The notes under the pieces are model-generated. The model ran no database searches, was not told the DNA's origin, and worked only from the letters and a program-made list of their open reading frames with translations. The position numbers and the translations under genes were made by a program. This document shows positions 2,390 to 19,605 of a stretch of 64,000 nucleotides of DNA, one piece after another (position 1 is the stretch's first letter; every line of letters starts with the position of its first letter). This DNA comes from an uncultured Verrucomicrobiae bacterium (GTDB taxonomy: Bacteria; Verrucomicrobiota; Verrucomicrobiia; Limisphaerales; UBA1100): NCBI GenBank assembly GCA_937775205.1, contig CALKBX010000013.1:15648-79647 (forward strand), given 5' to 3'.

Positions 2390-2399
2390 GGTTTCTGCG

Positions 2400-2936: not shown

Positions 2937-3093
2937 ATTTATCTCATCCTCTGTAACCTTGGAGCCCATTGGCATTATTTCTACGGGCACTGCCGCTGGA
3001 GTCGGGCACGCCAAAGGAGTACATTTGAAAGTCGGCGATCAGGTTGAGGCGAGTATTGAAGAGATCGGAGCCTTGAAAAACACGATGGTTTAA
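2933..3093 (+). pseudogene. FAH 3'-end fragment, copy 2 (decaying)
   Basis: Encodes EFISSSVTLEPIGIISTGTAAGVGHAKGVHLKVGDQVEASIEEIGALKNTMV*, homologous to 2221-2389. No start codon; conserved PGD changed to PIG. Confidence 0.85.
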
Positions 3094-3107
3094 TGAAGTT
3101 AGACCAT

Positions 3108-3124
3108 CGCCTTGACTCGGTGAT
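3108..3124 (+). pseudogene. tRNA-Val(GAC) anticodon-arm remnant
   Basis: TCGCC-TTGACTC-GGTGA stem-loop, at the same offset after the FAH stop as the tRNA 3' half at 11070. Confidence 0.5.
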
Positions 3125-3317
3125 TAATCACTGTAAAGCCTATAAAACAAGGCTCAAACACATATTGATTTGTGCTATTTCGACTAATTTGAGCAGTCAC
3201 ACAAGTCATTCTTTTGGTGCAACTCGAACATCTTAAACCGAAACATAGTAGCAGTTCGACTAAATACATAAACCATGCTAGTCGTCATAGAATGGTGTGG
3301 CATACTAAGCTAGGAAG

Positions 3318-5747: not shown

Positions 5748-5762
5748 AACCCAAGCCGAATC

Positions 5763-7118
5763 ATGAGCAATATTCAGACCCAATCCTGGTTAATCGACCG
5801 CCGCCACGCCCTGCGCGCAATGGGAACCTGCATCGCCCTGCCGATGCTTGAGTGCATGATCCCGCTGACGGCCAAGGAGAAAATCAGCTCGCCGCGACGC
5901 AGTGCCTTCATTTACCTCGCCAACGGCGTGCATTCGCTAAATTACCAGATCACCAAGCCGGGCAACGATTACCAATTCTCTCGCTCGCTCAAGCCGCTGG
6001 AGAAATTCCGTAACACCATAACGCCAATCAGCGGTCTGCACCATCCCGGAAGTCTGGGGCATCACCACAACTGCATCGACATCTTTCTGACCGGCGCCAA
6101 GATCGGTGCAGCGCATCGCAACACCATTTCAGTGGACCAAAAGATGGCGCAGGTCAGCGGGCAGCATACGCGCTATTCCTCCATGGAAATCGCGCTCACC
6201 GGCGGGTCCCTCGCCTGGACCCCGGACGGCGTTCAGCTTCCCGCAATGCGGCGGTGTAAACAAATTTTCGCCTCACTCTTCGAGGAGCCCAAGGACGGTA
6301 TTGCCGCCCAACGAAAGGCACTGCGACGCAAAGCCAGTGTGCTGGATGACAACCTTACCGAAGTTCGTCGTCTGTCTCAGAAAATCGGTGCAGCCGATAA
6401 AGGCCGCCTCGACCAATACCTCACCTCTGTCCGTGAGGCTGAGATTCGCACACGCCGCGCCGATGCCTGGCTCGACACGCCATTGCCGGAGATTTCTGCA
6501 GCCGACCGTCAACGCACCAACCGCGATGTGCCCAAGACACAGGCAGGCGACTATTTCCGCACGGTCTATGACCTCATGGTGCTGGCTTTCCAAACGGACG
6601 CTACGCGCGTGGCCACTTTCAGCCTAGGCGGCGAGGGCGATGCGTTCGCCATTCCGGAGATTGGTATCACCGAATCGCGCCACCAACTCAGCCACCACGG
6701 TGGTGATGAAGGCTACATGGAGAAGCTCACCAACTACGATACCTTCGCCATCGATCAATTCAGCTACTTCCTCACGCGGCTTTCGGAAACCAAGGATCTG
6801 AACGGTAAATCGTTGCTCGGTTCAACCATGTCGCTCTTCGGCAGCGGCATGTCCTACGGACACAGCCATGGGAATGCCAACCTGCCACTGGTACTCGCTG
6901 GCGGCACAGATCTCGGCCTGAAGCACGGCAGCCACCTCGATTTCAATCAGGGTCATTTCGACGGCTACACACTCAATAAGCCCGGCGACCACTACCGCCT
7001 CTGCAGTCGCCCTGCGAACACGGATGCCCACATGAGCAACCTGCTCCTCCTCATGTCCCAAAAGATGGGTTTGGAAACCGATCAATTCGGCGATAGCAAC
7101 AAAGTGATTTCGTTATGA
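5763..7118 (+). CDS. DUF1552 family protein
   Basis: Twin-arginine-like N-terminus (IDRRHALR), [22 protein letters not shown] and LPLVLAGG motifs; canonical partner downstream of DUF1592. Confidence 0.9.
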
Positions 7119-8405
7119 CTCGGATACAACCCGGCATACGTTTCGCCGTGCTGACACTCGGCGCGGCCCTGCTGACTGTGCCTTCTTACGCTGAGGAAAA
7201 ACCGTTCCGCCCTGAAGCGGGGAAGTTTCCTCCCTTGGACAAAGCACATGCCTACCGGGGCGAACTCATCTTTGTCGATCACGCCAACCGCCGTGGCAGC
7301 CTCCGCGTCGAAGGAACGGGCAAATTTTACCGAAACGACCCCCATCCATTCGCTCTACTTCCTTATGGCATAGTCCGCTACCACGATGCGCCTGCGGATC
7401 TGCGGGACGTTCCCTTGGGAACCGTTTTGCATGCCCATGGATTTCTACCGCCTGACCCCAAAATTTCCTCCGTTCCGGTATTGCCGACCAACAATAAGGG
7501 CAAGGACGCCGGCCATTATCGCGGCACTGGCATTTTCCCCGCAGAGAACCACGTCCTTCTACTTGAGGACGAGCCCAGTTACTGCAGACGAAACGGACTA
7601 ATCTGGAAACTCATGGAAGTGGAGATCAAGGGCAACGAGGGTTCGATTCTTGCCAGGCGTGAATCTCAAAAAAAGGATGAGAAAAAATACGAACCGGAAA
7701 AAATGACTTTCGATGCCGCCACACGTATTTGGCGTGGTCGCGAATCAATCCGAGTCTCGGATCTGATCGACGAGAAAGTATGGCCGGTAAGTGGAAAGAA
7801 AGAACCCAACGATCAAGCCGTTCTTGCTGAGCATCACTTGGAAACCCGCTCCTGGGGATGGACTGAGTGGGGCTTTCACACGCTTTCACGTCTCGGATAT
7901 CTGGTTGGACGACAAGTCTATTGAACACGCGGCCTATTTTCAGACTGAGAAGCACAAGACCTTTATCAAAAGCCGCTGGATGCCCGCCCGGGTTGATGAA
8001 ATAAACTATGGCAAGTTCGGTCGAGCTACCGTAACGGCTACCTTGTTCGGAGGAATGAGCGAATCCACCTTTATTCCGACTTCCGAAAGGGAAAGCGGTG
8101 GGCAAATTAATGGTGCGGAAAACACCCTGAAGCACACTGCAGGCCACTATGGCCCCGGACACATGGCCTCGGGTGGTAAAATCCTTCGAGTAAAGAAGAC
8201 GAGTGGTAAGATTCCCCTTGGCAGCAGCGGCATACAAGTCCAGTTCGAAACCGACCTCGTCATCGAGGGCATCCGCCCCGGCACGGGTCATCCGCGTTCG
8301 ACCGGACTCGTTGGCCCAAGATGCAGATACCCCGGGAAGAATACCTTTTCACATAACACGCCCGAGGACCGGTTCCCGACTCCGGCCATCTTCCCGAAAT
8401 ACTGA
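7115..8405 (+). CDS. Secreted protein of unknown function, paralog A (multiple frameshifts, probably errors)
   Basis: Signal peptide; colinear with the 8423-9688 protein across frame changes near 7830, 8070-8100 and 8280-8350; shared C-terminus PE(D/E)[11 protein letters not shown]. Confidence 0.75.
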
Positions 8406-8422
8406 CCCTAGGAAATCGCCTC

Positions 8423-9688
8423 ATGACTCAACTTAAACTTGTCCGATGGATCGCCACGCTGCCCCTCAGTGTGTGCCTCCTCGTTTCCAAAGCCAATGCC
8501 CAGGAAGAACCGTTCCGTCCTGAGGCGGGTAAATTCCCTCCGCTGGAAAAGGCTCATTCCTTCCGAGGCGAACTCACATTTGTTGACCACGCAAACCGAC
8601 GAGGCAGCCTACGCATCCAAGGCGCGGGCACCTACTTCCGCAACGCGCCGCACCCCTTCGCCATGTTGCCCTACGGCATCATCCGCTATCATGGAGCTCC
8701 TGCTGAACTGCGCGACATTCCCATCGGCACCGTACTCCATGCTCGGGGCTTTCTCCCGCCGAATCCCAAGCTTTCTTCCGTGCCGGTCTTGCCGGTCAAC
8801 AACCGGAACAAGACCGTCGGCTACAGCGGCAAAGGCATCGCCCCTGCCGAGAACCACCTCATCCTATTGGAAGACGAACCCAGCTTCTGCCAACGCGAAG
8901 GCAAAGTCTGGAAGCTCAAGGAAGTGGAACTCCAGAACAACACTGGCAAGATCACAGCTCGCCGCGAAGCCAAAATCGACGCCAACAAGGCCGAAGAGAA
9001 AACATTAACTTTCGATGCCGCCACCCGCATCTGGCGCGGTCGTGAGAAACTCGAAGTGGCCGACCTTGTCGCTGATGGCATCTGGCCTGCCAACGGCAAG
9101 AAAACCCTCAATGATCAAGCCGTCTTGCTCGGCATCACCTGGAAACCCACTCCGAGTAACATCTTTACCCGTTTCCACATCTCAGACATCTGGTTGGACG
9201 ATGTCGCCATGCAACGCGCCGCGCGTAATCAGACTGAGACGCACAAAGCATTCATCCGAACCCGCTGGATGCCCGGTTGGATTGATGCGGTTGAGTACGG
9301 CAAATTTGGTACCGCCACGGTGACCGCTACCCTATTCGGCGGCATGGATGAATCACTCTACGCAGATTTTAAGAAGGATTCCTCCGCCCTGATGAACGCA
9401 GTGGAGAGTAACCTCAAGCACACGCACGGCGCCTACAGCCCTGCTCACATGGCCAGTAAAGGCCCCATCCTTGATGTCATGAAAACCAAAGGTGACATCC
9501 CGTTCGGCAGCAGCGGTATCCAGATCAAATTCAAGACCGACCTTATCATCGAAGGCATACGCCCCGGCCGCAACATCCGCGTGCGCCCAAGTCACTGGCC
9601 TCACGTCAATATCCCCCGCGAAGAATACCTCGGCGGCAATACCCCCGAAGAACGCTTCCCTACCCCAGCCATCTTCCCGAAATATTGA
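8423..9688 (+). CDS. Secreted protein of unknown function, paralog B
   Basis: Intact 421-aa ORF with signal peptide; strong similarity to paralog A ([37 protein letters not shown]). Confidence 0.85.
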   Translation: MTQLKLVRWIATLPLSVCLLVSKANAQEEPFRPEAGKFPPLEKAHSFRGELTFVDHANRRGSLRIQGAGTYFRNAPHPFAMLPYGIIRYHGAPAELRDIPIGTVLHARGFLPPNPKLSSVPVLPVNNRNKTVGYSGKGIAPAENHLILLEDEPSFCQREGKVWKLKEVELQNNTGKITARREAKIDANKAEEKTLTFDAATRIWRGREKLEVADLVADGIWPANGKKTLNDQAVLLGITWKPTPSNIFTRFHISDIWLDDVAMQRAARNQTETHKAFIRTRWMPGWIDAVEYGKFGTATVTATLFGGMDESLYADFKKDSSALMNAVESNLKHTHGAYSPAHMASKGPILDVMKTKGDIPFGSSGIQIKFKTDLIIEGIRPGRNIRVRPSHWPHVNIPREEYLGGNTPEERFPTPAIFPKY

Positions 9689-9838
9689 GGCGACTATTAT
9701 CCGCCTCCACCTCAAAATTGGCCCAAGATCACTCCTTCTTCGAAGAATAAATCCGCGGCCTCGAAGCCCGCTGGCTGAGCTCTGAAATTTTCAAGAAGTA
9801 ATCGAGTGTTTGAACGAACTTCATGTTTTCCTAGGAAA

Positions 9839-9881
9839 GAGCGGTTAGCTCAGTTGGGAGAGCACTGCCTCGACACGGCGG
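9839..9881 (+). pseudogene. tRNA-Val(GAC) 5' half
   Basis: GAGCGGT-TA-GCTC-AGTTGGGA-GAGC-A-CTGCC-TCGACAC-GGCGG gives acceptor strand, D arm and anticodon arm (GAC). No T arm or CCA follows. Confidence 0.8.
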
Positions 9882-9911
9882 TGGCGCTGGGATAGAGAGC
9901 TTTCCTGAAAT

Positions 9912-10310
9912 CTATTCACTGTCAGAATCTTCCGCTGGATCTTCTCCGGATTCTGCAGCAGCAGCCTCACGAGCCTTGCGGGCTTCAATAAATGAACGGA
10001 TGCACAATCCAACAAAAACAACGCATAATACTAGCGTCACGGATTTAGCCGCAAGGGCAGCGGTGGGTTGACCTTTTTTTAATAGGGTGGGAATTACACC
10101 AATTGCCCCAATCAAGCCCACCATTACCGCGATGTGCATAGCCATCATCCGTCTATTTTCATTGGATGCTAGAAATCCACAGACCAGAAGAATCAACCCC
10201 AAGGCAGCAGGAATCAAAGCCGTTAGCTGCTCTGCACCTGTACCAAAATATCCGGCCAATCCAGTGGCGAGCAAAAGCGCCCCGAACAAAATTGTTATCT
10301 TATACATCAT
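9912..10310 (-). CDS. Small membrane protein (about 4 TM, TMEM14-like)
   Basis: Four hydrophobic segments (GLAGYFGTG, TALIPAALGLILL, AMHIAVMVGLIG, SVTLVLCVVFV) and an acidic tail. Family resemblance is by pattern. Confidence 0.7.
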   Translation of the reverse strand: MMYKITILFGALLLATGLAGYFGTGAEQLTALIPAALGLILLVCGFLASNENRRMMAMHIAVMVGLIGAIGVIPTLLKKGQPTAALAAKSVTLVLCVVFVGLCIRSFIEARKAREAAAAESGEDPAEDSDSE

Positions 10311-10348
10311 CGCGGCTGTCATTCTAACGGTTTACACACAAAGGTAAA

Positions 10349-10373
10349 GCTCTAGAGGCAGGACTCGAACCTG
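10349..10373 (-). pseudogene. Possible tRNA T-arm/3' fragment (tRNA-Leu-like)
   Basis: Minus strand reads CAGG-TTCGAGT-CCTG-CCTCTAGAGC, a perfect T stem-loop; the rest of the tRNA is absent. Confidence 0.4.
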
Positions 10374-10427
10374 TTCTGTTGTTTTCTGGGGGTAGTTGAC
10401 AGATTATTCACAACTTCGGATATACAC

Positions 10428-10460
10428 CACATCGAAACGGAGGGGGTCACTGGTTCGGGC
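10428..10460 (+). pseudogene. tRNA-Val fragment (anticodon arm to T loop), degenerate
   Basis: CACATCGAAACGGAGGGGGTCACTGGTTCGGGC matches 11071-11103 at 27/33 nt and abuts the ADH-fragment stop codon. Confidence 0.7.
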
Positions 10461-10805
10461 TTAAAACAAAATTACTTGGCGCGCGACTTCGCCTTTGTGG
10501 AGGCGATCGAAGCCTTCGTTGATTTCTTCCAAATGAAGGGTGTCAGTGAGTAGCTGGTCCACCGGTAATTGGCCGGCATGGAACATCTCAATAAACTTCG
10601 GGATATCACGGCTCGGCACGCAGCTTCCCTGATAGGAGCCTTTCACCGTTTTCTCCATCGCACTCAATGTGACGGCAGGAATACTGAATTGATGGTCTGG
10701 ATGCGGTAAACCAATGGCGACCGTGGTGCCTCCACGCATGGTCGATTCATAGGCTTGGGCGAGCACGGTGGCGTTTCCCGCGCTCTCAATAGCGATTTCC
10801 AAACC
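10461..10805 (-). pseudogene. Zn-ADH 3'-end fragment (duplicate of 17521-17865)
   Basis: About 113 in-frame codons homologous to the ADH C-terminus (GSYQGSCVPSRDIP...VARQVILF*); lacks the catalytic N-terminal part. Confidence 0.9.
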
Positions 10806-11056
10806 CTCAAAATCTGCCGCTTAAATTAACAGTAAATGGAGAAGTGCATCAGGATGCGAGCACGGCCATGCAGATTTTTCCGGTGGCTGCTGTGATTGAA
10901 TTCATTTCCTCTTTTGTGACCTTGGAACCCGGTGACATTATTTCCACGGGGACGGCCGCTGGGGTAGGGCACGCCAAGGGAGTTCACTTGAAATCGGGTG
11001 ATCAGGTTGAGGCCAGTATTGAAGGGATCGGAGCCTTGAAAAACACGATGGTCTAA
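10799..11056 (+). pseudogene. FAH 3'-end fragment, copy 3
   Basis: PNPQNLPLKLTVNGEVHQDASTAMQIFPVAAVIEFISSFVTLEPGDIISTGT...LKNTMV* in one frame; begins back-to-back with the ADH fragment. Confidence 0.9.
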
Positions 11057-11069
11057 TGATGTTCGACCA

Positions 11070-11119
11070 TCACCTCAACACGGTGGGGGTCAGTGGTTCG
11101 AGCCCACTACCGCGTGCCA
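11070..11119 (+). pseudogene. tRNA-Val 3' half
   Basis: TCACC-TCAACAC-GGTGG-GGGTC-AGTGG-TTCGAGC-CCACT-ACCGCGT-G-CCA followed by a T run; anticodon reads AAC; no D arm. Confidence 0.8.
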
Positions 11120-11160
11120 TTTTTCCTAACTCTGTATGACAGGGTTAAATGAGAACTGCC

Positions 11161-11277
11161 TCACTCAGGCCACTTTTCGCACTGTTGTTCAGTCCAGTCT
11201 TTACCTTTCGCTTCCTGCGCGAAAGCGTTGAAGCAAAAACTCAATGTAACAATCGTAGTAATAACTGCTTTCTTCAT
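11161..11277 (-). CDS. 38-aa small secreted protein or truncated gene
   Basis: MKKAVITTIVTLSFCFNAFAQEAKGKDWTEQQCEKWPE*; GAGGA ribosome-binding site about 8 nt upstream; signal peptide with AFA cleavage site. Below the ORF-track cutoff. Confidence 0.5.
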   Translation of the reverse strand: MKKAVITTIVTLSFCFNAFAQEAKGKDWTEQQCEKWPE

Positions 11278-11333
11278 GTATCGTTCCTCGTTAAATATTT
11301 TTGGTTAGAGTCCAAGTTTTGCGCCTTCGCTGC

Positions 11334-11426
11334 CTAGAGCGCGCTTACGCCCCAGAGCTTCGAAAGCTTCTTGCAGTGGATCACGATCGCCTTGTATTTC
11401 GACAGGTCCGTCCCCGCCGGGATATT
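11334..11426 (-). pseudogene. DM13-domain C-terminal remnant
   Basis: NIPAGTDLSKYKAIVIHCKKLSKLWGVSAL* matches the DM13 C-terminal pattern IPxGxDLSxYxxVVIWCxxFxxxFGxAxL; no intact upstream part. Confidence 0.55.
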
Positions 11427-11482
11427 CCTGCCATGGCATGTACTTTCCTGTCTCGAAGTTCGGTCGACCCATTTTTGGCGGA

Positions 11483-14400
11483 TTATTTGCCTTTTTTACG
11501 CTTGGCTCCTTCGCGTTTTTTGGCCATTGCCGCCTTGTACTTCTTCAATTGTTCTTCGTCCAGAATCTTGGCGAGACTGGCATGGAACTTCTTCCCGACA
11601 GCCTGTATTTTTTTGCGATCCTTTGATGCCTGCGCTTCCTTCATCAATGGCTGCATCGTTTTTTGGAGCTCCTGGACTTGCACCTTCTGTTCCTGGCTGA
11701 GACCAACGCCGGCGAACCGGTCAGGGCGGTTGCCTTTTCCCTTCTGATTTTCAGGTATTGCCTCCGCTCGAACAGGCAATTGTTTCGCGGTAGTAGATTG
11801 ATCATCGGTGGCGTCCGCCATGATTTTGAGGTCGTCAATTTCAATGCCGCTTTCGCCACCGTTCAGCATGAACAACAGCATGTTTTTTCGGAATGCAAAG
11901 CCAGGGCGCTGGAGGGATTTTGTCCAGCGATTGTTGTCCAGTCGGATCACCACGCGGTCGCCCTTAAAGACAAGTTGCAGGTTGTGCCAGTTCTTGTCCT
12001 GTAGGTCGACGGCCTCTGGTTTGAGTCTCTCTTCTACCCGATAGGCGCCACTGACTTTATCAGGTGGCCTGTCCTCCTTCTGTGGGCTTTGCTTTCTCCG
12101 CCGAGCGAGATTCTTGAGCAGTTTCGGATCTTTCGGGTTCTTCGTATGCGCATCGACTTGAATCCGCACCGAGTTTCTCAACAACGCCACCCGCAGCATA
12201 TGATCTTGCCCACCAAAACCATCGTCTCCATCGATAAACAGCCAGAGCATCCTGCCGTCGCCCAAATGCCTATAGCGAAAGGAAATGGAGCAATCGATTT
12301 CATCGATGGGAATGCCGACAAATGGCGGATATTTGCCGCCGCTATGGCCGCGGGTCCACATAGCGCCATTGCGTATCGTCGTGTATTCGGGGCTGAACCT
12401 AAGAAAACGGCTGGGATCGACTTTGTCGAAGGGCTCGTGTCCTTTGAACAGTTGCTTGATCGATGCGTCGGCAGGCGATTGGACATTCGTGTCCGTACTT
12501 CCCGAAACAGGTTGAAAACCCGCGCTCCTTTTCAAAACGTCACTACCTTTGGGTTCGCTGTAGAGATTATTCATAAAAGTTCGGCTGGAGATCAAATCCA
12601 GAACCAGCCCCTTGAAGCCGTCACCATCCAGTCGAGATTGCGTGACGAGTTGTTTTACTTTTTGCTTTTCCGAATAGTTCAAGACGCGGCCAGTCGCGTA
12701 GGTAAGCAACTTTTCTGACAAGCAGTTGCCAAAGTAATCGACGTTGGCAACAAGCCACCGCTTAAAGGCGGCAGCATCCTTAATTCTGGTACCGTCGAAG
12801 AGCACGCCTGAAGCGTCGATGGGCTTTTGGGTGGCGGGCCAGACCTGCCGCCACTTACCGACGGGATCGTAATTTTCCAACATAAAGCCGACGGGGTCGA
12901 TGAGTCGGTGGCACGATGCGCATGATGCGTCGGTGGTGTGTTTGGCCAGGAGTTCCCGTGGCGTGGTAGCGCCCCGGGTATCCGGCGTAAGGGCGGGGAC
13001 GTCCTGGGGCGGCTCCGGCGTCGGCATACCTAAGACGTTTTCCAAGACCCAGGCGCCGCGCAATACCGCTTGCGTATCGACGCCGTTAGCCGTTGCCATC
13101 ATCACAGCGGATTGCCCCAATATCCCGCCGTGGCGATGCCCCTTGGGGAGAGCGATGCGTTCCAGCTTCAGACGATTTATGTTTTCGATAGATTTGCGTT
13201 TCGGACCCGGACCCAGCCCGTAGATTCGGTGGGAGAAACTTGGCGTCGTATAGGTAAAATCCGGATCGATGAAGGTGCTGACGGGCAGATCTTTTGAGAG
13301 AATCTCGCTGAAGAAGTGAAACGTCTCCCGCTTGGCCGTTTCCGTATCGAGTGCTGAAAACTTGAATTTGGGGTCCGGCATGATGTCGTCGAGATCTCCC
13401 ACGTTGAGCCATTGACTGACAAAACTGGTAATCATCGGCGCATCGTACGTCGTGGGCATTAAGCGTTTGGCTTCGGCACGCAAAATCTGCGGATTCCGCA
13501 ACTGCGACTGGGATGCGAGCTGCAACAAGCGGGCATCTGGTGGTTGCTTCGTGAGAAAGTAGGATAAACGGGCGGCCAGATCGAAATCGTCGAGCTGATC
13601 GCCATTGTAGGAACGATACAAGAATCGCGGCGATATGAGAATCTTCCGCAGCAGCAGATGCATGGTCACGTCCGCATCATGCCCTTCGGAAAACGAGTGT
13701 TTAGCGATTTTCATATAGGTCGCGATGGTTTCTTCGCTGACGGGACGCCGAAATGCGCGCGGCAAAAATTGACGCAGAAAAGGCTCGATCATTGCCTCTC
13801 CAGAGCCTTTGCCGGCTGGGATGCCGAGTACCTTGAGTTTGAGCTTCGCTGCCGTTGCCTCGGATCGAGAGGGAATCAACTTCAGCGGTCCAGTGACACT
13901 GGCTGCATGCAGCTGCAGAGCGGGACCGTTTTCGAAATAATCCGGGGCAAGGAACTCGTAGAATCGCCGAGAAAACGGAAGTTTGTCCTTGGCGCCTGGC
14001 GGATTCCGAAAAAACCGAAAGATTTTAGCCGTGGTTTTGGGGTCGCGAGCTGCGGCGCTGACGTCCAGCTTTGGATCGTTCATCTGGTTCTGAAAGTGCT
14101 GCCACCCCTTGCCAAGTCCGCGGACGACTGATTGGTGAGATGTGGCAAGAGGGCCAAAGGTGGCGTTCCATACCGCGTGAAAGCGCTTGTCTATTTTGAA
14201 ACGTTCACGCAGGTGCGCTTCTAAAGGTTCGGCTTCAAAATCAATGGGAGCATTCTTGAAGTGAAAGATCAGGGTCTGCCCAGCATATAGATCCGCATCA
14301 AAGTGAACGATCTTGGGGGTCCTGGAGTCCACCCTTATTTCTTTTAGAAGACGAAACTTCTCGTAGCCAGCCCGGGGATTGGTGGTGCTTTCGGTTGCGC

Positions 14401-15304
14401 GAACGTGGAGTATCATCGGTTCCCGCATGAAATTGCCTCGTTTTGCATTGAAGGCCGACGTTTTAATTTCGATGCGGTAGGTGCCGGCCACTTTGGCTTC
14501 GAACTGATCCAGCCAGGTGCCGCTGAAAGCTTTCAAGTCTGTGCGGCTGACGAGGCGCAGCGCATCACCGTGAATGGAGGAGGCAGAATAGCTCTTGGCC
14601 ATGTCTTTCGGGCCGGCTTTGTGGGTTGTTGACTGCAGATCTCGAGACCGCTTGCGGGGATAAAAGAGGTCGGCAAACGTTTCGGCAGTTTCGGAATAAG
14701 CTTCCAACAGATCGGGAGAGGTAACCAGGCCTTCGCTGAGGTTGTCGAAACCGTGAAGCTCGTTGTCTTCTGGAAAACCCAGCGGCAATTTGGCCCCTCC
14801 CTGTTGGAACAGCGCCCGCATGGTGTTGCGGTATTCGTCGCGACTCAATCGGCGTGCTTTGGTGACGCCAAAGATTGGCGTCTCAGACAATTCTTTTGCA
14901 ATCCAATCGCTAAATTGCGTGCGCTCCGCTTCTCTTGGTTGTGACTTTTTCTTCGGCGGCATCAACTTGTCGTGATTTGCGCCAAGCACCTTTTCCCAAA
15001 AAACGCGGTCTACCTCCTGGCCCCAATCGACGACGTCGCGTTCAAGATTGACGTCGCCTTTCTCGGAGTCGCTGTCATGACAGTCGATGCAATAACGATT
15101 GACGTAGTCGTGGACAAACGACGGAACAGGTTCCGCCTGCGAAGCTTCGTTTATCACCTTAACCTGTACTCGAGGAGTATCAAGCTGATGACTTGCCGAT
15201 GGCTTCCCGCACCCAAATACAAAAAGGCTAAATAGAACTGTAATCGTCGCGACAAGCAGGTGAAGCCAGAGGCTCGCGGCGTTGCGAGTGTGTATAACCG
15301 CCAT
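11483..15304 (-). CDS. Lipoprotein cytochrome c / DUF1587-1592-1595-1588-1585 protein with extra beta-sandwich and Spy/CpxP-like C-terminal domains
   Basis: Lipobox LFVFGC; CIDCH and CASCH haem motifs; ARRLSRDEY, LAARLSYFL and GGILGQ motifs; about 330-aa C-terminal extension. ATG overlaps the DUF1552 stop (TAATG). Confidence 0.85.
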   Translation of the reverse strand: MAVIHTRNAASLWLHLLVATITVLFSLFVFGCGKPSASHQLDTPRVQVKVINEASQAEPVPSFVHDYVNRYCIDCHDSDSEKGDVNLERDVVDWGQEVDRVFWEKVLGANHDKLMPPKKKSQPREAERTQFSDWIAKELSETPIFGVTKARRLSRDEYRNTMRALFQQGGAKLPLGFPEDNELHGFDNLSEGLVTSPDLLEAYSETAETFADLFYPRKRSRDLQSTTHKAGPKDMAKSYSASSIHGDALRLVSRTDLKAFSGTWLDQFEAKVAGTYRIEIKTSAFNAKRGNFMREPMILHVRATESTTNPRAGYEKFRLLKEIRVDSRTPKIVHFDADLYAGQTLIFHFKNAPIDFEAEPLEAHLRERFKIDKRFHAVWNATFGPLATSHQSVVRGLGKGWQHFQNQMNDPKLDVSAAARDPKTTAKIFRFFRNPPGAKDKLPFSRRFYEFLAPDYFENGPALQLHAASVTGPLKLIPSRSEATAAKLKLKVLGIPAGKGSGEAMIEPFLRQFLPRAFRRPVSEETIATYMKIAKHSFSEGHDADVTMHLLLRKILISPRFLYRSYNGDQLDDFDLAARLSYFLTKQPPDARLLQLASQSQLRNPQILRAEAKRLMPTTYDAPMITSFVSQWLNVGDLDDIMPDPKFKFSALDTETAKRETFHFFSEILSKDLPVSTFIDPDFTYTTPSFSHRIYGLGPGPKRKSIENINRLKLERIALPKGHRHGGILGQSAVMMATANGVDTQAVLRGAWVLENVLGMPTPEPPQDVPALTPDTRGATTPRELLAKHTTDASCASCHRLIDPVGFMLENYDPVGKWRQVWPATQKPIDASGVLFDGTRIKDAAAFKRWLVANVDYFGNCLSEKLLTYATGRVLNYSEKQKVKQLVTQSRLDGDGFKGLVLDLISSRTFMNNLYSEPKGSDVLKRSAGFQPVSGSTDTNVQSPADASIKQLFKGHEPFDKVDPSRFLRFSPEYTTIRNGAMWTRGHSGGKYPPFVGIPIDEIDCSISFRYRHLGDGRMLWLFIDGDDGFGGQDHMLRVALLRNSVRIQVDAHTKNPKDPKLLKNLARRRKQSPQKEDRPPDKVSGAYRVEERLKPEAVDLQDKNWHNLQLVFKGDRVVIRLDNNRWTKSLQRPGFAFRKNMLLFMLNGGESGIEIDDLKIMADATDDQSTTAKQLPVRAEAIPENQKGKGNRPDRFAGVGLSQEQKVQVQELQKTMQPLMKEAQASKDRKKIQAVGKKFHASLAKILDEEQLKKYKAAMAKKREGAKRKKGK

Positions 15305-16545
15305 TATGCTTCCCACAACGAGTTTAGGTTTCGCGAGGCGTTGGAGAAACGCTCGCACTCGATTCCCAGCCGCTGCTGCAAAGAAATGAAGAGATCACCC
15401 AACAGGTAGGGGGCACGAGTGCTTGGGTCGACCGCAACGTGGCGACCGTGCTTGCCGCCGCCGCCCGCCACCAAGCTCGGGAGATTTCGATTCGAATGAC
15501 GACTGGCGTCTCCCATGCCTGTTCCAAGAAAAACCAAGGTGCTGTCGAGAAGTGGCCGACCCAGGGCGTCTTTCTTTTCCTTTAACTGGTCCAGAAAGCC
15601 GTTGAAGCGCTTTACGTGCTCGCGCTCGATCCGGATCAGGTCGCGAATTCGTGAGGGATCGTTGCCGTGATGAGACAGCGTATGATAACCTTGACTGAGG
15701 GACTCGCCCTCGAGTTCGAAAACCGGGCCTCCGCCGCCCAACTGCATCGTTAAAACGCGACTGGAACCGTTTTGGATGGCCAGGGCGATGAGATCATACA
15801 TCAGCGTTGAGCACTCCATCTGTTGTCGCGGCGCTACCGGATCACTGTCTGGAAGTTTGTAGCTGGTGGTCGGTACGGGATCGTTGATCCGCGCAATTCG
15901 CGTTTCCAAGCGCTTCTCCACGCTGCGTAGCGAGGTGAAGTATTCGTCCAACGCGCTTTGGTCACGGCGCGAGACTGTTTTCTGAAGTCGATTGGCGTCT
16001 TCCAGCACATAGTCCATGGCCGACTTCCCGCTCCGCAGAATGTGCTCCTGATGCTTCTGATCGGCTTGCGAAATGAACATTTTCTTGTAAAACACCGATG
16101 GTCGTCTGATGGCGGGCAATCGTGTTCCCTGCTTCGAAAAGCTCATCGGAGCGGCACTGCCTCCGGCGACTAGCTGAACAGAGCTGAAACGACAGCTCGT
16201 TCCGATTTGGTCGGCGATCATCTGATCCAGGGAGTAGCTGCCAACCCTTTGGCCGCAGAGTAAGTTCGCCCAATAGTTGTGACCATTGGGCGCCTGATGA
16301 TCCAAGCCCGAGAAGATTGTGAAGTCCCGACGATGTCCGGCAATGGGTTCCAGTATTTCCGGCATCGTATAGTTGGCGCCAGCCTCTTTGGGATAGAACC
16401 CCTTTTGATACCAACCAAGGTTGGCTCCAATGGCGACAAAAGCTTTGGCCTTTTTTGATGCATCTTTAGGGGCTCCAAAACTCTCAAGAGCCGGGAGGGC
16501 GATGCATACGCCGAGTGATGAGAGAAATTGCTGACGTGATATCAT
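15304..16545 (-). CDS. DUF1552 family protein
   Basis: SLDQMIADQIG, YHTLSHHG, LGTGMGDASRHS and NLPSLVAGG motifs; degenerate twin-arginine N-terminus (ISRQQFL). Confidence 0.9.
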   Translation of the reverse strand: MISRQQFLSSLGVCIALPALESFGAPKDASKKAKAFVAIGANLGWYQKGFYPKEAGANYTMPEILEPIAGHRRDFTIFSGLDHQAPNGHNYWANLLCGQRVGSYSLDQMIADQIGTSCRFSSVQLVAGGSAAPMSFSKQGTRLPAIRRPSVFYKKMFISQADQKHQEHILRSGKSAMDYVLEDANRLQKTVSRRDQSALDEYFTSLRSVEKRLETRIARINDPVPTTSYKLPDSDPVAPRQQMECSTLMYDLIALAIQNGSSRVLTMQLGGGGPVFELEGESLSQGYHTLSHHGNDPSRIRDLIRIEREHVKRFNGFLDQLKEKKDALGRPLLDSTLVFLGTGMGDASRHSNRNLPSLVAGGGGKHGRHVAVDPSTRAPYLLGDLFISLQQRLGIECERFSNASRNLNSLWEA

Positions 16546-16719
16546 GTGGCGGCCTCTGTCTCTAGCGCTTGGTCATTGTGCTCAATGCACAGGGTCTGAA
16601 TTGATCGGTGGTGTGGAGTAACGGCACAAACAGTACTCTTGTGGCTTCTTGTTTTCTGTTATCCGTAGCAGCCGGCAAGTTCATGAACATGAACCTACCC
16701 AGTGAGCTCTTAAAGCTAT

Positions 16720-16755
16720 AGAATGAAACGGTTTGTTTTTTAGATGAAATCGGCG
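16720..16755 (-). promoter_or_regulatory. Candidate AraC-type tandem operator
   Basis: Minus strand CCGATTTCATC and CCGTTTCATTC with TTTCAT cores 21 bp apart, upstream of the DUF1552 operon. Confidence 0.3.
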
Positions 16756-16762
16756 TCAGGGG

Positions 16763-17497
16763 CTATCTGGCCCGATGTGATTTACGGTAAGTAAGAGGGG
16801 TTGTTTTCATGATACGTGAGAACTCACGGGAGAGGTGGCTTTGATCCGAGAAACCACAGCGATGGGCAACTTCAACAAGCTGGTGACTGCTATGACTGAG
16901 GAGATAACATGCTTCATGCACGCGGAGGTGCCGGATGTAGCTCCGTGCCGTCATATGGAATGCTTTTTTAAATTTCCGTTCAAAAGCACTGAGTGAAAGC
17001 CCGACTTCCTTGGCGAGTTCGGAGATTTTGATGGTGGATGCAAATTGTTCTTTCATCACCCCGAGTGCTGGGCCGAGTTCTCTATCAATATCGATTCCTA
17101 AAGTTCCCAAGGCAAAGGGACGAGTGGCCCCGGCGATGGCTTTGATGGTGCCATCGGGAGCGCGGAGCGGGATTTTCGTGGTAGTCGACCAATCGACAAA
17201 TCCACCGCCACTAGGAACGAGTTCAACTTTGTTTAAGATGGGCATTCCTGTTTCCAGGATAGTGCGGTCACTTTTGGCATAGCCGTCGGCCATGGATAGA
17301 GAGAAAAAGTCGTAGTCAGTTTTGCCGATGACCTCCTGAGCATCTTTGCAACCAAATTTCTCCACTAATCGTTGGTTGACAGCCACAAAGCGGAACTGGG
17401 TGTCTTTGACAAAATAGAGAAAGCCTTCGATATGATCGAAGAGGCTCTCGCCATGGTCTGTCAGGCCGTTGGATGTGAAAAAATCGTGATCGCTCAT
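16763..17497 (-). CDS. PAS-domain AraC family transcriptional regulator
   Basis: N-terminal PAS (FVKD, VIGKTDYD, KIPLR) and C-terminal double HTH (LAKEVGLSLSAFERKFKK, CGFSDQSHLSREF). Confidence 0.92.
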   Translation of the reverse strand: MSDHDFFTSNGLTDHGESLFDHIEGFLYFVKDTQFRFVAVNQRLVEKFGCKDAQEVIGKTDYDFFSLSMADGYAKSDRTILETGMPILNKVELVPSGGGFVDWSTTTKIPLRAPDGTIKAIAGATRPFALGTLGIDIDRELGPALGVMKEQFASTIKISELAKEVGLSLSAFERKFKKAFHMTARSYIRHLRVHEACYLLSHSSHQLVEVAHRCGFSDQSHLSREFSRIMKTTPLTYRKSHRAR

Positions 17498-17507
17498 GGT
17501 TATCGGA

Positions 17508-17520
17508 CATTGGTTCGAGC
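17508..17520 (+). pseudogene. tRNA T-arm remnant
   Basis: CATTGGTTCGAGC directly abuts the ADH stop, mirroring 10448-10460. Confidence 0.5.
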
Positions 17521-18645
17521 TTAAAATAAAATCACCTGCCGGGCAACTTCACCTTTGTGAAGTCGGTCAAAGCCCTCGTTTATTTCTTCCAACTTGATGG
17601 TGTCAGTGAGTAGCTTATCCACCGGTAATTGGCCGGCATGAAACATCTCAATAAACTTCGGGATATCACGGCTCGGCACGCAGCTTCCCTGATAGGAGCC
17701 TTTCACCGTTTTCTCCATCGCACTGAGCGACACGGCGGACACGCTGAATTGATGTTCCGGATGCGGCAGGCTGATGGCGATGGTGGTGCCGCCGCGCGCG
17801 GTGGATTCGTACGCCTGCACCAGCACCTTCGCGTGGCCGGCGCTTTCGAGGGCGATTTCCACGCCACCGTGGGTGAGGTCGCGGATGGCTTCCACGGGAT
17901 CGCACTCGGCGGCATTTACGGTGTGTGTCGCGCCGAGGTTGCGGGCCATCTCGAGTTTTGATTCCAGTAAATCGACGGCGATGATTGTGCCCGCGTCGCA
18001 CGCCTTCGCGCCCATCAACGCGGCAAGCCCCACGCCGCCGAGGCCGAACACCGCGACCGATTGGCCGGGGCGAATGTCAGCGGTATTCATCACCGCGCCG
18101 GTGCCGGTCATCACCGCACAGCCAAAAAGCGTGGCGTGCTCGAAAGGCAAGTCGTTGTCAATCTTCACCAACGAGCCGGGCAGGGCGATGGTGTATTGCG
18201 AATAACCGGACACGCCGCAGTGGTGAAAATACGATTTGCCGTTGCGGCTGAATCGTTGGGCGCCATTCAACAACGTGCCGGCGTTGTTGGCGTCCATCCC
18301 CGGTTCGCAAAGGGAAGGGCGGCCTTCGGCGCAGTAGCGGCACGCGCCGCAGCTGGGGATGAAGGTGAAAACCACGTGGTCATCCGGCGCAAATCCGCGC
18401 ACGCCTTTGCCCACTTCGCGCACGATGCCGCTGGCTTCGTGGCCGAGCACCATCGGCATGGGTCGCGGTCGCGCGCCCTCGATGACCGATAAATCCGAGT
18501 GACATAGCCCCGCGCCTTTCACCTCCACCAACACCTCGCCTTCGCCGGGGCCTTCGAGTTCCAATTCCTCGATGACCATCGGTTGCGAGTCGGCGTAGGG
18601 CAATGGCCGTTCTGTTTTGTGCAGCACCGCGGCGGTAGTTTTCAT
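17521..18645 (-). CDS. Zinc-dependent alcohol dehydrogenase (MDR, class III-like)
   Basis: GLCHSD, GHEASG, structural CxxCxxCx7C and Rossmann GLGGVG motifs; start MKTTAA at 18645. Confidence 0.95.
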   Translation of the reverse strand: MKTTAAVLHKTERPLPYADSQPMVIEELELEGPGEGEVLVEVKGAGLCHSDLSVIEGARPRPMPMVLGHEASGIVREVGKGVRGFAPDDHVVFTFIPSCGACRYCAEGRPSLCEPGMDANNAGTLLNGAQRFSRNGKSYFHHCGVSGYSQYTIALPGSLVKIDNDLPFEHATLFGCAVMTGTGAVMNTADIRPGQSVAVFGLGGVGLAALMGAKACDAGTIIAVDLLESKLEMARNLGATHTVNAAECDPVEAIRDLTHGGVEIALESAGHAKVLVQAYESTARGGTTIAISLPHPEHQFSVSAVSLSAMEKTVKGSYQGSCVPSRDIPKFIEMFHAGQLPVDKLLTDTIKLEEINEGFDRLHKGEVARQVILF

Positions 18646-18710
18646 CGGCGGGAGGATTGGGTAAATCGCAGTGGATTGCAATTGCCCAACGTTTGGGGCA
18701 GAGTGAGCGG

Positions 18711-19605
18711 ATGCAATTGGCGGCAAACAAGCGCGCGTTCACCTTGGTGGAATTGTTGGTGGTGATCGCCATCATCAGTGTGCTGGCTGGTTTGATGCTG
18801 CCCACGCTGGCGAAGGGCAAGGCCAAGGCGAATCGAATCAAATGCACCAATAATCTTCGCCAAGTGAACACGGCGTTGCGCGGGTTTTCCATGACGCACG
18901 ACTCGCGTTATCCGTGGTTGCTCACGCAACAGCAAGGCGACGCGATGTTCAAGCGCATGTACGGGCAGGCGCATACGGGCTGGATTCATTTGTGGGATAT
19001 TCGGTTTATGTTTTTGAGCGAACCGGCGCGGCGCGAGCTGGTGACCGCGCGCGTGCTGGCTTCGCCGTGCGATCCTTCGGTGACGGTTTACAATGAAGAG
19101 GAAGCCACCAACGGCAAGTGGGAAGGCTTCGGCGCGGGCTTCGATGGTATTCACATTCACATGGATCGGCGCTCGATGAGCTACGGCGTGCATCTCGGCG
19201 CGGATGAGCAACGGCCCGCGAGCATCCTCGCCTTCACGCGCAATCTGATTGGCGAGCCGGGATATGAATTTGATTATCCCGCCGGCAAGGCGTTTGCCGG
19301 ACATCGCGGAATTTCTTGGCGGCTCGTTGCAATTGGCCACACAAAATTCCGCGCAACAACAATTCATCGGCAACGACCACGCCGATCTTGAATTGCTCCA
19401 ACGCCACGCGATGGCGGGATTGAGCGCGAGCCAAGGCCAAATCACGCTCGCCGATGGCAGCGTGCAGCAGACCACCGATGCCGGCCTCGCCCAAGCCATC
19501 AAGGCCCACGCGAACAGCCACGGCGGCGCATACTTGGGCGTGAACGAAAATTTCACACGCCCCACCCAGCGCCCCGATCCCAACGGCCGGATGAAAATCC
19601 GCTAG
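18711..19605 (+). CDS. Prepilin-type N-terminal cleavage/methylation domain protein (PVC type; one frameshift)
   Basis: AFTLVELLVVIAIISVLAGLMLP, CTNNLRQ and LASPCDP; C-terminal GQITLADGSV continues in the +1 frame after about 19300. Confidence 0.85.

Follow-up and report, generated by a model that had tools for sequence, protein, structure and literature searches.

How a 7,060-bp block of foreign genes came to be framed by two copies of the 3′ end of a chromosomal gene is the question raised by this locus in the 64,000-nucleotide stretch analyzed here (the window). The gene is an intact Zn-ADH (ADH; 17521 to 18726, minus strand; Pfam ADH_N and ADH_zinc_N), whose mosaic 3′ end forms the right copy. 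The left copy (ADH′; 10461 to 10805, minus strand; Pfam ADH_zinc_N positions 61 to 127) is a 345-nt 3′ fragment with a reading frame for a 113-codon C-terminal fragment (10461 to 10802). The two ends (10445 to 10805 and 17505 to 17865) give a gap-free alignment offset by exactly 7,060 bp, and self-BLAST recovered the repeat at 82% identity across 357 nt (E = 3e-100), bearing out an earlier note on this DNA that had reported the duplication at this spacing. Compared in the coding orientation, the copies share 70.2% identity in the far part (segment c, 141 nt), 97.6% (123/126) in a central patch (segment b, 10539 to 10664 versus 17599 to 17724), and 78.2% in the stop-proximal part (segment a, 78 nt), confirming the near-identical patch with diverged sides described in that note. 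The repeat extends 16 nt beyond the ADH stop codon, at 81% identity.

Three lineages contribute to these copies, which we designate alpha (backbone type), beta (L005-like), and gamma (a third, L118-like lineage). The right copy is a three-way mosaic, running from alpha (17726 upstream) into a beta patch (∼17600 to 17722) and then into gamma near the stop (17521 to ∼17600). Its segment c is 100% identical to contigs L095 and L096 and 93 to 96% to alpha types, segment b is 99.2% identical to L095 and 97.6% to L005, and the nearest sampled relative of segment a is L118 (93.6%). The alpha/beta junction, at 17722 to 17726, recurs to the nucleotide in L095 and L096, and the beta/gamma junction lies at ∼17597 to 17606; both patch boundaries are older recombination junctions. 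The left copy is uniformly beta (99.3%, 100%, and 97.4% to L005 in c, b, and a, respectively). Based on codon endings, the copies had been described as reciprocal chimeras. This holds for the right copy, where GC3 falls from 85% (c) through 62% (b) to 46% (a), but not for the left, which has no compositional switch (55% in c, 50% in a). Nor can a switch be resolved in the left copy, since the host allele, too, is of beta type from the patch on. The left copy shows no mismatches to L005 across 10492 to 10801, versus 15 in the adjoining 580 nt to the left, a pattern that fits a junction near the patch. It may be read equally well as an unrecombined L005-type ADH end, and reciprocity is therefore not demonstrable.

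At 10801 to 10806, ADH homology stops and homology to a fumarylacetoacetate-hydrolase family gene (FAH) starts, and two gene interiors are fused tail-to-tail. This illegitimate joint is real, but it lies ∼5 nt from the site given earlier (∼10799 to 10801) and has a 2- to 3-nt overlap of CC rather than CCA. On its FAH side is a ∼250-nt 3′ fragment of gamma lineage (FAH′ copy 2; 10806 to 11056, plus strand), whose ORF at 10844 to 11056 matches positions 147 to 213 of 214 in Pfam FAA_hydrolase. Its best nucleotide matches are L110 (90%), L097 (89%), and L118 (89%), compared with just 76 to 79% for the backbone FAH. The joint suggests a recent event, because it shows only 2 to 3 nt of microhomology and both ADH′ and FAH′ are still open reading frames.

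Some features of the window could point to a strain-chimeric or repeat-collapsed assembly, including indel-error signs (three ORFs in place of one BamA-like gene, and frameshifts in FAH) and short-read contigs L086 and L088 that break inside the patch. Against this, the arrangement is repeated in contigs from at least nine independent samples and assemblers, 98.3 to 99.5% identical to the window. Four contigs (L081, L082, L086, and L088) cross the joint placed near 10799 in the earlier note, seven cross from ADH into the neighboring AraC gene, and two long ones (L081 and L082) span both ADH copies and all between. An assembly artifact, effectively refuted by these contigs, is excluded for practical purposes and seems exceedingly improbable. 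A Pfam scan found no integrase, transposase, relaxase, or replicase in the 7,060-bp unit, in agreement with the earlier reading, and none among the scanned ORFs of the window outside it, a set that covered all but about a dozen, mostly short, of those of ≥120 aa. The precomputed annotation of L081/L082, covering approximately window positions 6,760 to 27,500, likewise showed none of these.

In the direction of ADH, the unit consists of the gamma ADH end, a 16-nt tRNA piece, genes for an AraC-PAS regulator, a DUF1552 protein, and a DUF1592-family protein, a tRNA-Val remnant, the FAH′ fragment, the joint, and the beta far part of ADH′. The genes of this unit (cargo 1) are all on the minus strand and were identified by Pfam. 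The 1,291-aa protein with DUF1592/1588/1585/1587/1595 and PSCyt1 domains (11483 to 15358) has 90% nucleotide identity to L178, where its context is unrelated, and the DUF1552/1592 part as a whole is 82 to 90% identical to that locus. The closest homologue of the 413-aa DUF1552 (HXXSHH) protein (15304 to 16545) is P0189 (88% aa identity), which adjoins a GntR gene and not ADH. The AraC-family regulator with a PAS domain (16763 to 17497) lies in a separate module (16688 to 17501) with 91.6% nucleotide identity to L093, again between unrelated flanks. Cargo 1 is itself a mosaic, its AraC module and DUF1552/1592 genes matching different loci in other contexts. At its left edge, a degenerate tRNA-Val-like sequence (11041 to 11118, plus strand) overlaps the FAH′ stop and reaches a 3′ CCA; the match covers positions 10 to 63 of the Rfam tRNA model at a subthreshold 12.5 bits, and the sequence was also compared by eye. 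A 16-nt T-arm piece (17505 to 17520, plus strand), located between the start of the AraC gene and the stop codon of ADH, repeats 11086 to 11101 in direct orientation (14/16). Because tRNA-Val-derived repeats bracket cargo 1, an earlier integrase-type, site-specific step in its donor-lineage history is plausible.

Comparison with relatives marks the spacer that separates ADH from FAH, two convergent core genes, as a hotspot of recombination in this group of marine Verrucomicrobiota, where blocks from related lineages are swapped and stacked. Across relatives the spacer holds a double-zinc-ribbon (DZR) gene, a membrane protein, or three unrelated DUF1592/DUF1552 pairs, and in L115 and L106 it consists entirely of a 44-nt tRNA-Val internal remnant. 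In the window, tRNA-Val remnants lie in this spacer together with another stacked module (3089 to 9873) and another FAH fragment. The conserved left flank is the backbone-type FAH (1455 to 2386, plus strand; Pfam FAA_hydrolase), syntenic in L001, L002, L004, and L010, which reads here with two apparent frameshifts (tblastn of the L001 FAH matches three frames). The DZR gene (2400 to 2936, plus strand; Pfam DZR and synteny) directly abuts the ADH stop codon in alpha-type relatives. Here its stop codon runs, over a microhomology of ∼4 nt (TTGA), into FAH′ copy 1 (2933 to 3091, plus strand), a 3′ piece of 155 nt from an FAH of low-GC lineage; with 10896 to 11085, this piece forms a direct repeat of 84% identity (2933 to 3122 in self-BLAST).

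Beyond the FAH′ copy 1 stop, a tRNA-Val-like anticodon-arm remnant (3095 to 3125, plus strand), recognized on visual comparison with a genuine tRNA-Val(GAC), marks the left edge of cargo 2 (3126 to 9838, plus strand; Pfam and synteny). This module carries a DUF1592/1588-family gene (3318 to 5747), a DUF1552 gene (5763 to 7118), both identified by Pfam, and a paralogous gene pair whose function is not known (7115 to 8405 and 8423 to 9688). Cargo 2 is present in the beta genome L113 and absent in L095, L096, L005, L003, and L097, with the deletion junction between “AACACGATGGT” and “GACACGGCGGT”. Its loss by deletion is clear in several lineages, and deletions at short homologies are frequent at the hotspot. 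Cargo 2 is followed by the 5′ two-thirds of a tRNA-Val (acceptor, D arm, and anticodon arm; 9839 to 9885, plus strand), broken before the T arm, which, compared with a real tRNA-Val, scored 16.3 bits in Rfam (below the gathering score of 29) and in which ARAGORN found no intact tRNA. The ORF for a small membrane protein of 136 aa (9912 to 10322, minus strand) is 97.6% identical to L005, and the wider region with flanking noncoding DNA (9873 to 10460) is 98.6% identical to L095; in the cargo-less alleles, as well as in genomes of beta type, this gene is found downstream of ADH. A last tRNA-Val-like remnant (anticodon arm to T loop; 10419 to 10460, plus strand) abuts the ADH′ stop codon, and the same remnant adjoins the ADH stop also in L005, L003, L095, L096, and L115.

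An empty, single-ADH allele had been predicted in the earlier note, and we found it within this species, in one case in a sample that also yielded the unit-bearing allele. Contigs L095 and L096 (backbone identity to the window, 98.4% and 97.7%) lack the 7,060-bp unit and have one ADH each, of the form alpha(c)-beta(b)-beta(a), with the membrane-protein gene after it; L095 and the cargo-bearing L081 come from one sample. An allele of this kind is expected under a single crossover in the patch, either as the parent or as the outcome of excision. The stop-proximal subtype of L095 (L098/L113-like) occurs in neither ADH copy of the window, and L095 is therefore not a simple deletion product, which favors an older age for cargo-free alleles. 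L096 could be such a product, and gain of the unit rather than its loss is inferred. A SNP (s1, T at 17641) is common to the right copy and L095, but toward the stop the left copy resembles L096; no single sampled allele matches the exact host.

Based on these observations, we propose, with about even confidence, that the unit was added by homologous recombination with a circularized piece of a relative’s chromosome. The recipient would have been an L096-like chromosome, with an ADH that is alpha up to and including c, beta in b and a, and followed by the membrane-protein gene. Its partner would have been a circular (or head-to-tail) DNA with ends inside FAH and inside ADH, closed illegitimately at the 2- to 3-nt microhomology, and under this Campbell-type model the joint would be the circle-closing site. 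One RecA-type reciprocal crossover would have occurred inside the 126-nt patch, where it was possible because host and incoming DNA have beta ancestry in common, the host being beta from 17722 toward the stop and the incoming ADH end beta down to ∼17606. The expected outcome is an intact ADH, with truncated ADH′ and FAH′ back to back; no element-encoded recombinase would be needed, and the ADH repeats would also permit loss of the unit. The earlier proposal of single-crossover circle integration is thus supported by the insertion-duplication topology (one truncated and one intact ADH end, and the novel ADH′/FAH′ joint), by the single-ADH allele, and by the lack of recombinase genes in the unit and among the ORFs scanned in the window, but not by reciprocity. 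Its source, a relative’s whole FAH-to-ADH interval, agrees with both cargo ends being nearest to one foreign clade, as the nearest relatives of segment a of the right copy and of FAH′ copy 2 are compatible with one L118-like lineage. A plain gamma relative, however, cannot be the source: the incoming molecule would need a hybrid beta(c,b)-gamma(a) ADH end, and no donor or circle with such an end beside cargo 1 was found by exact-protein look-ups or among the 80 genome and 80 metagenome loci searched. A further point against the circle model is that it requires two parents that were mosaics beforehand, their junctions bordering the patch.

Integration of a linear fragment without a circle, by homology-facilitated illegitimate recombination (HFIR) or by transformation-type “alternative pairing” on sister chromosomes, is a possibility that we hold to be rather doubtful. 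A cargo-1 chromosome and a beta-type segment (ADH, membrane-protein gene, and cargo 2) would have been joined by one homologous crossover distant from the joint and one illegitimate FAH′/ADH′ end-join, with the identical patch reflecting either common beta ancestry or a short tract of later gene conversion and the cargo-free alleles arising as later deletions between the repeats. The left copy is indeed colinear with the single-copy ADH of L005 (99 to 100% in c and b), with no compositional switch; short-homology deletions are frequent at the locus; HFIR features and transformation-induced duplications are documented in the literature; and the border of the DZR stop and FAH′ copy 1, with its ∼4-nt microhomology, resembles classical HFIR and shows insertion accompanied by loss of the spacer and the ADH end of the recipient. 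Yet HFIR normally removes recipient DNA rather than duplicating it, and three source lineages would be needed at one site. Descent from the window type would be needed to explain the alpha/beta junction that the right copy has in common with L095 and L096, yet the window lacks the L095 subtype, and the coincidence that the patch is the sole stretch of shared ancestry is left unexplained.

Tandem duplication of FAH(3′)-spacer-ADH(3′) within one genome, followed by independent replacement of the two copy interiors by different cassettes via homologous recombination in the flanks, seems unlikely. It would yield the same joint and topology in a spacer that is demonstrably a cassette-swapping hotspot, and contig L097 begins 3 nt from the joint position. 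Nevertheless, several extra replacement events would be required, FAH′ copy 2 has no beta-like stretch at the joint (its mismatches to L097 are spread evenly), and the ADH ends differ by 30% in c, though duplicates begin identical. Less probable still is site-specific integration, in which cargo 1 is a decayed tRNA-Val-targeting island whose integrase is elsewhere or lost and the ADH repeat is incidental. tRNA-Val-derived pieces do occur at every module border, the 14/16 T-arm repeat flanks cargo 1, its left piece reaches CCA like attP-restored tRNA ends, and the L115/L106 spacer is wholly a tRNA-Val remnant. However, the tRNA matches are below Rfam thresholds, no intact tRNA was found, nor any integrase among the scanned ORFs of the window, and the unit is delimited by lineage switches located within ADH rather than within the tRNA pieces. 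The ADH′/FAH′ joint would go unexplained, and a crossover mapping to the ADH patch is already indicated in additional alleles.

The preferred single-crossover reading has a close counterpart in Campbell-type insertion-duplication, the integration of a nonreplicating circle by RecA-dependent single crossover (Amarir-Bouhram et al. 2011, PMC3240628), with which it shares incoming DNA that carries an internal or terminal part of a chromosomal gene, an insert flanked by direct repeats of a few hundred base pairs (one truncated and one intact), the lack of an element-encoded recombinase, and reversibility via the repeats. In Escherichia coli, linear DNA was recircularized and integrated by recA-dependent single crossover, with 109- to 950-bp duplications of the homologous locus (PMC3240628). 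The helper-free additive route suggested earlier is therefore already documented, and the unit would be a natural example of a known, laboratory-documented mechanism. As differences, the vehicle here would be not a plasmid but a 7-kb piece of a relative’s chromosome, illegitimately closed between two gene interiors; just 126 nt of the mosaic homology are nearly identical; and the circle and RecA dependence are inferred. HFIR (natural transformation/conjugation) is similar in combining one homologous anchor, here the ADH 3′ end, with an illegitimate joint at 2 to 5 nt of microhomology, and it fits the older DZR/FAH′ border of the neighboring module well; in HFIR, however, insertion is typically coupled to recipient deletion, whereas the 7,060-bp unit only adds DNA and comes with a duplicated anchor. 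In transformation-induced merodiploidy (Johnston et al. 2013, PMC3784515), homologous recombination likewise generates a tandem-duplication-like structure with partial repeats at its borders. That process, by alternative pairing and unequal crossing-over, involves 100 to 900 kb of self DNA and IS-derived border repeats (PMC3784515), whereas the interior here is foreign and 7 kb long. As in tRNA-linked genomic islands or integrative elements (additive flexible islands), tRNA-derived repeats lie at the cargo borders and accessory cassettes of differing composition are stacked, but neither an integrase nor an intact tRNA was found, and it is within a protein-coding gene that the unit begins and ends. 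Replacement-type flexible genomic islands of marine microbes are exchanged by recombination in conserved flanking genes. The locus resembles them in its conserved flanks (ADH and FAH), its different cassettes among relatives, and its mosaic flanking-gene ends, but the exchange here added to what was present, with the older cassette retained and pieces of ADH and FAH left behind as scars.

The 3′ end of the Zn-dependent alcohol dehydrogenase (ADH) gene occurs twice in the window, at 10445-10805 and 17505-17865, aligning gaplessly 7,060 bp apart (self-BLAST, E=3e-100). This confirms the direct repeat described in the earlier note, including its central patch (10539-10664 and 17599-17724), in which 123/126 nt are identical. 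In the ADH coding direction, the 126-nt patch (segment b) is preceded by a 141-nt far part (segment c) with 70% identity between the left and right copies and followed by a 78-nt stop-proximal part (segment a) with 78% identity; the 16 nt beyond the stop codon are 81% identical. The right copy is the end of the intact gene (17521-18726, minus strand, 401 aa). The left copy is a C-terminal fragment of 113 codons (ADH′), fused tail to tail with ∼83 C-terminal codons of a fumarylacetoacetate hydrolase (FAH)-family gene (FAH′). At this joint (10801-10806), ADH homology stops and FAH homology starts, with an overlap of 2 to 3 nt. The genes between the ADH copies, all on the minus strand, encode a DUF1592/1588-family protein (1291 aa), a DUF1552 protein, and an AraC-PAS regulator, together referred to as cargo 1. 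The DUF1592-family protein (11483-15358) carries ∼360 C-terminal residues past its last Pfam domain (which ends at ∼residue 928), with a lysine-rich tail and no family assigned to this stretch. A composite transposon was ruled out on anatomy: the borders lack significant inverted repeats, no transposase is present, and the “duplication” is 361 nt long and diverged.

An index of a public assembly collection lists the exact AraC protein in 68 blocks, and nine contigs retrieved from different samples show 98.3 to 99.5% identity to the window. Contigs L081 (ERZ8136210) and L082 (ERZ8136131) span both ADH copies, all cargo, and the flanks, and the ADH′|FAH′ joint is crossed by four independent contigs. 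Two short-read contigs (L086 and L088) terminate within the patch, as a repeat would predict. With nine contigs in the same arrangement, four over the joint and two over the whole unit, an assembly artefact is effectively excluded, and with it the strain-chimeric assembly that the earlier note had held out as its refutation. Elsewhere in the window, three ORFs make up a broken BamA-like gene (POTRA, POTRA, Omp85) at 49082-51913, and two frameshifts are required to read the backbone FAH gene at 1455-2386; both cases are probably assembly indel errors and not real pseudogenes. These indel-type problems suggest that the window may come from an error-prone long-read assembly; the architecture is unaffected.

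We compared the ADH loci of 13 related Verrucomicrobiota metagenome-assembled genomes (MAGs) and 21 related metagenome contigs, among which the ADH-FAH interval is highly variable. ADH and FAH are convergent and separated by 9 to 50 nt in the distant relatives L009, L011, L115, L106, and L116, and a double-zinc-ribbon (DZR) gene lies between them in L001, L002, L004, L010, L102, and L107. The spacer is filled by unrelated DUF1592/DUF1552 pairs (25 to 35% aa identity to the window pairs) in L013, L008, L101, and L103 and holds a small membrane-protein gene in L005, L003, and L097. Relative to L001-type genomes, 14.6 kb of the window (2936-17521) is wholly extra and is made up of one module stacked on another. 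Module 1 (2933-10805) starts with an FAH′ fragment and continues through a tRNA-like piece, cargo 2, a tRNA-Val 5′ part, the membrane-protein gene, and another tRNA-like piece to ADH′. Module 2 (10806-17520) runs from the second FAH′ fragment through a tRNA-like piece ending in CCA and cargo 1 to a 16-nt T-arm piece, followed by the intact ADH. This stacking of FAH′-to-ADH modules emerges from the ADH repeat together with a second direct repeat, which the earlier note does not mention (2933-3122 and 10896-11085; 190 nt, 84%); each of its copies is a 3′ fragment of FAH from a low-GC lineage that runs into the start of a tRNA-like piece. Simple tandem duplication was ruled out on anatomy, the unit interiors (cargo 2 plus membrane protein versus cargo 1) being unrelated; the DUF1592/1552 pairs of the two cargos share only ∼30% aa identity. 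We conclude that the ADH-FAH locus of these uncultured marine Verrucomicrobiota is a hotspot of recombination.

Three sequence types were distinguished along the repeat: alpha, the backbone type (L002, L107, L010, and L003); beta, resembling L005, L098, L113, and L097; and gamma, an unsampled lineage nearest to L118 and L108. In the right copy, alpha sequence extends to 17726 (100% identity to L095 and L096, contigs of the same species, and 93 to 96% to alpha relatives), followed by beta from 17722 to ∼17606 (99.2% to L095, 97.6% to L005, and only 70 to 78% to alpha types) and gamma from ∼17600 through the stop codon and 16 nt further (93.6% to L118 and 77 to 80% to alpha and beta). Its GC3 tracks these lineage switches (85%, 62%, and 46% in c, b, and a). 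Compared with L005, the left copy is beta throughout (c, 99.3%; b, 100%; a, 97.4%), with GC3 of 55, 67, and 50%. Thus, the codon usage from which the earlier note read two reciprocal chimeras bears out the right copy but not the left, which lacks the reverse pattern. Homology of the left copy to L005 extends at ∼97% via the membrane-protein gene to 9873. The resulting 933-bp segment (9873-10805 versus L005 10076-11008) is 97.5% identical, the backbone of this Antarctic MAG being only ∼85% identical to the window; a similarity this high points to recent inter-species exchange. The second FAH′ copy is closest to L110 (90%), L097, and L118 (both 89%) and only 76 to 79% identical to backbone FAH genes. 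The best sampled match to the gamma ADH end is L118, so a single foreign lineage could have supplied both ends of cargo 1.

Exact look-up of the membrane protein recovered L095 (contig_2068 of ERZ8136210, the same sample that supplied the cargo-bearing L081) and L096. Both are contigs of this species without the cargo, and their backbones are 98.4% and 97.7% identical to the window, respectively. The empty single-ADH allele for which the earlier note had suggested looking therefore exists. Both contigs carry, in order, the backbone, full ADH, membrane protein, FAH′ copy 1, DZR, and FAH. Their ADH end is alpha in segment c, identical there to the right copy, and then beta through the patch to the stop codon and past it. 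L096, which reads alpha(c)-beta(b)-beta(a)-membrane, thus equals what recombination between the left and right copies would yield, and L095 is similar. This allele is exactly what a single crossover in the patch predicts, as either parent or excision product. Just past the patch, L095 carries the L098/L113 beta subtype, found in neither window copy, so L095 is no simple deletion derivative, which favors the cargo-free alleles as the older state. Relative to L096, the 7,060-bp unit is additional DNA, with none deleted. Two other readings of L095 were discarded: that it is of the right-copy type through the stop codon, which came from BLAST extension and was overturned by base-by-base alignment, and that it contains an “alpha-like” stretch, which is in fact the beta subtype of L098 and L113.

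Homologous recombination within the patch is the best explanation of the 7,060-bp unit. The host would have been an L096-like chromosome. The incoming DNA, closed by an illegitimate joint at 10801-10806, would have carried an ADH end of beta(c)-beta(b)-gamma(a) composition followed by the 16-nt piece, the AraC, DUF1552, and DUF1592 genes, the tRNA piece, and finally FAH′. One crossover inside the patch, between 17722 and ∼17606, would have fallen where beta ancestry was common to host and incoming DNA, and the left copy would afterwards combine donor beta (c and b) with host beta (a). This composition fits the mismatches to L005 (0/310 over 10492-10801 versus 15/580 immediately to the left), which is weak evidence because both parts are beta, the host also being beta beyond the patch. 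An objection that colinearity of the left copy with L005 refutes Campbell-type integration was withdrawn, since the host allele is likewise beta there. We infer that the direction of the event was a gain. Of the earlier note's circle integrated by one crossover, the insertion-duplication topology and the empty allele stand; the donor must be an unseen mosaic, and the evidence for reciprocal chimeras is borne out by half.

A donor ADH end combining beta(c) with gamma(a) was in none of the ∼180 fetched loci, and the exact host allele was not among the sampled alleles. Four routes to a donor led elsewhere. AraC homologues (80 to 92% relatives L090, L092, and L093) lie in unrelated contexts; the best match to the FAH fragment (protein P0121, L097) belongs to a beta FAH-membrane-ADH genome without cargo 1; and an 88% DUF1552 homologue adjoins a GntR gene elsewhere. 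A metagenome scan with the beta-type ADH returned cargo 2-bearing beta genomes (L113), gamma-like ADH/FAH neighbors (L118, L108, L110, and L104), and no beta/gamma hybrid. Separately, the MAG contig L097 (JABJGD010000190.1, positions 1 to 4) begins 3 nt upstream of the joint-homologous position, which could be chance or a graph branch from a joint-bearing variant in that sample.

Cargo 1 has a modular make-up, its parts having closer relatives in unrelated contexts, with homology ending at gene borders. L093 633-1426, whose flanks are unrelated, matches the AraC module (16688-17501) at 91.6% identity, and the DUF1552/DUF1592 pair (12753-16545) is 82 to 90% identical to L178 10016-13721, located downstream of a GntR gene. 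Cargo 2 (3126-9838) contains a second DUF1592-family/DUF1552 pair and two paralogous genes without assigned function. These tandem paralogues (7194-8405 and 8502-9688) share 68% nt identity and have no Pfam match; L113 apparently has three copies (1712-5547), and exact look-up of the cargo 2 gene at 8423-9688 returned no record. Cargo 2 is present in L113 and absent from L005, L003, L097, L095, and L096. In alleles without it, the FAH′ end AACACGATGGT is joined to GACACGGCGGT of the tRNA 5′ fragment, the two forming an imperfect 11-nt repeat at window positions 3080-3090 and 9868-9878. The junction lies at ∼6438-6447 in L095 and ∼10999-11008 in L005 and also occurs in L096, L003, and L097; its bases are GC in L095 and AT in the others. 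The two-base difference between L095 and L096 implies deletion at the imperfect repeat, perhaps more than once, and suggests independent deletions or later conversion.

Pieces alignable to tRNA-Val(GAC) occur at every module border: an anticodon arm (3095-3125), the 5′ two-thirds (9839-9885; Rfam, 16.3 bits, sub-threshold), a piece from anticodon arm to T loop that abuts the ADH′ stop (10419-10460), one from D arm to CCA that overlaps the FAH′ stop (11041-11118; 12.5 bits, sub-threshold), and a T arm (17505-17520). Within the window, ARAGORN found 0 tRNA genes and Rfam nothing at gathering score. In L115 (1208-1256) and L106 (∼9723-9771), the whole 44- to 48-nt ADH-FAH spacer aligns by eye to an internal part of tRNA-Val, with the ADH and FAH stop codons overlapping its ends; the L115 spacer has zero Rfam matches. 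The tRNA-remnant reading is thus based on sub-threshold scores and by-eye alignment. The T-arm pieces at 11086-11101 and 17505-17520 form a short direct repeat (14/16) that brackets cargo 1 rather than the whole 7,060-bp unit, and the left one is restored to CCA, as an attP-borne tRNA end would leave. This hints at site-specific recombination as the route by which cargo 1 originally reached the gamma-lineage spacer, a reading kept tentative because all tRNA scores are sub-threshold; earlier integrase-type steps are plausible. No integrase was found by Pfam in the region's ORFs or the larger ORFs of the remaining window, or in the annotation of ∼6,760-27,500 (L081/L082); these scans bear out the earlier note's claim that the unit lacks integrase and transposase.

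Integrase-mediated insertion at the tRNA-Val remnants could draw on that CCA-restored repeat, but the 7,060-bp unit has its borders in ADH, which the tRNA pieces do not explain. Tandem duplication followed by cassette replacement yields an identical topology at the cost of a larger number of events. The remaining rival is homology-facilitated illegitimate recombination (HFIR) of a linear fragment, or alternative pairing, with L095 and L096 as later deletions; HFIR is defined by an illegitimate joint with 3- to 10-bp microhomology and an adjoining homologous anchor. It accounts for the colinear left copy and fits the older DZR|FAH′ border, where ∼4-nt microhomology accompanies insertion coupled with deletion, but it requires more sources and coincidences, and HFIR as a rule deletes rather than duplicates.

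At this locus, an additive insertion without an integrase occurs in both its filled and its empty form within one population, with traceable sub-segment lineages, which is seldom documented in nature. PVC-specific DUF1592/DUF1552 pairs and regulators can pile up between conserved genes via the host recombination system, leaving flanking-gene fragments as datable scars. The locus offers a concrete, testable case for models of how flexible islands grow in abundant, uncultured marine bacteria. More speculatively, and with the balance somewhat against it, islands in these marine Verrucomicrobiota may grow additively without mobile-element machinery: chromosomal intervals flanked by two convergent core genes, excised or taken up, would be circularized at microhomologies and then added head to tail through single crossovers in the mosaic ADH 3′ end, with an ancient tRNA-Val pseudogene in the spacer possibly seeding the hotspot and possibly serving integrases in trans. 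If general, this would be a helper-free counterpart to tRNA-linked additive islands.

The mechanism is already known from experiments, and the locus reveals no new molecular mechanism; it is a well-resolved natural instance at a hotspot. In Escherichia coli, linear DNA is degraded or is recircularized and integrated by recA-dependent single crossover, giving 109- to 950-bp duplications of the homologous locus (PMC3240628). Three Campbell-type features are present here: direct repeats of a chromosomal gene segment around the insert, one truncated and one in the intact gene; a novel internal joint closing the incoming DNA ends, ADH′|FAH′; and the empty allele of L096, with L095 similar. The microhomology typical of HFIR is also present (2 to 3 nt at ADH′|FAH′ and ∼4 nt at DZR|FAH′). 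HFIR couples insertion to deletion in the recipient, as at the DZR|FAH′ border, whereas the 7,060-bp unit deletes nothing relative to L096.
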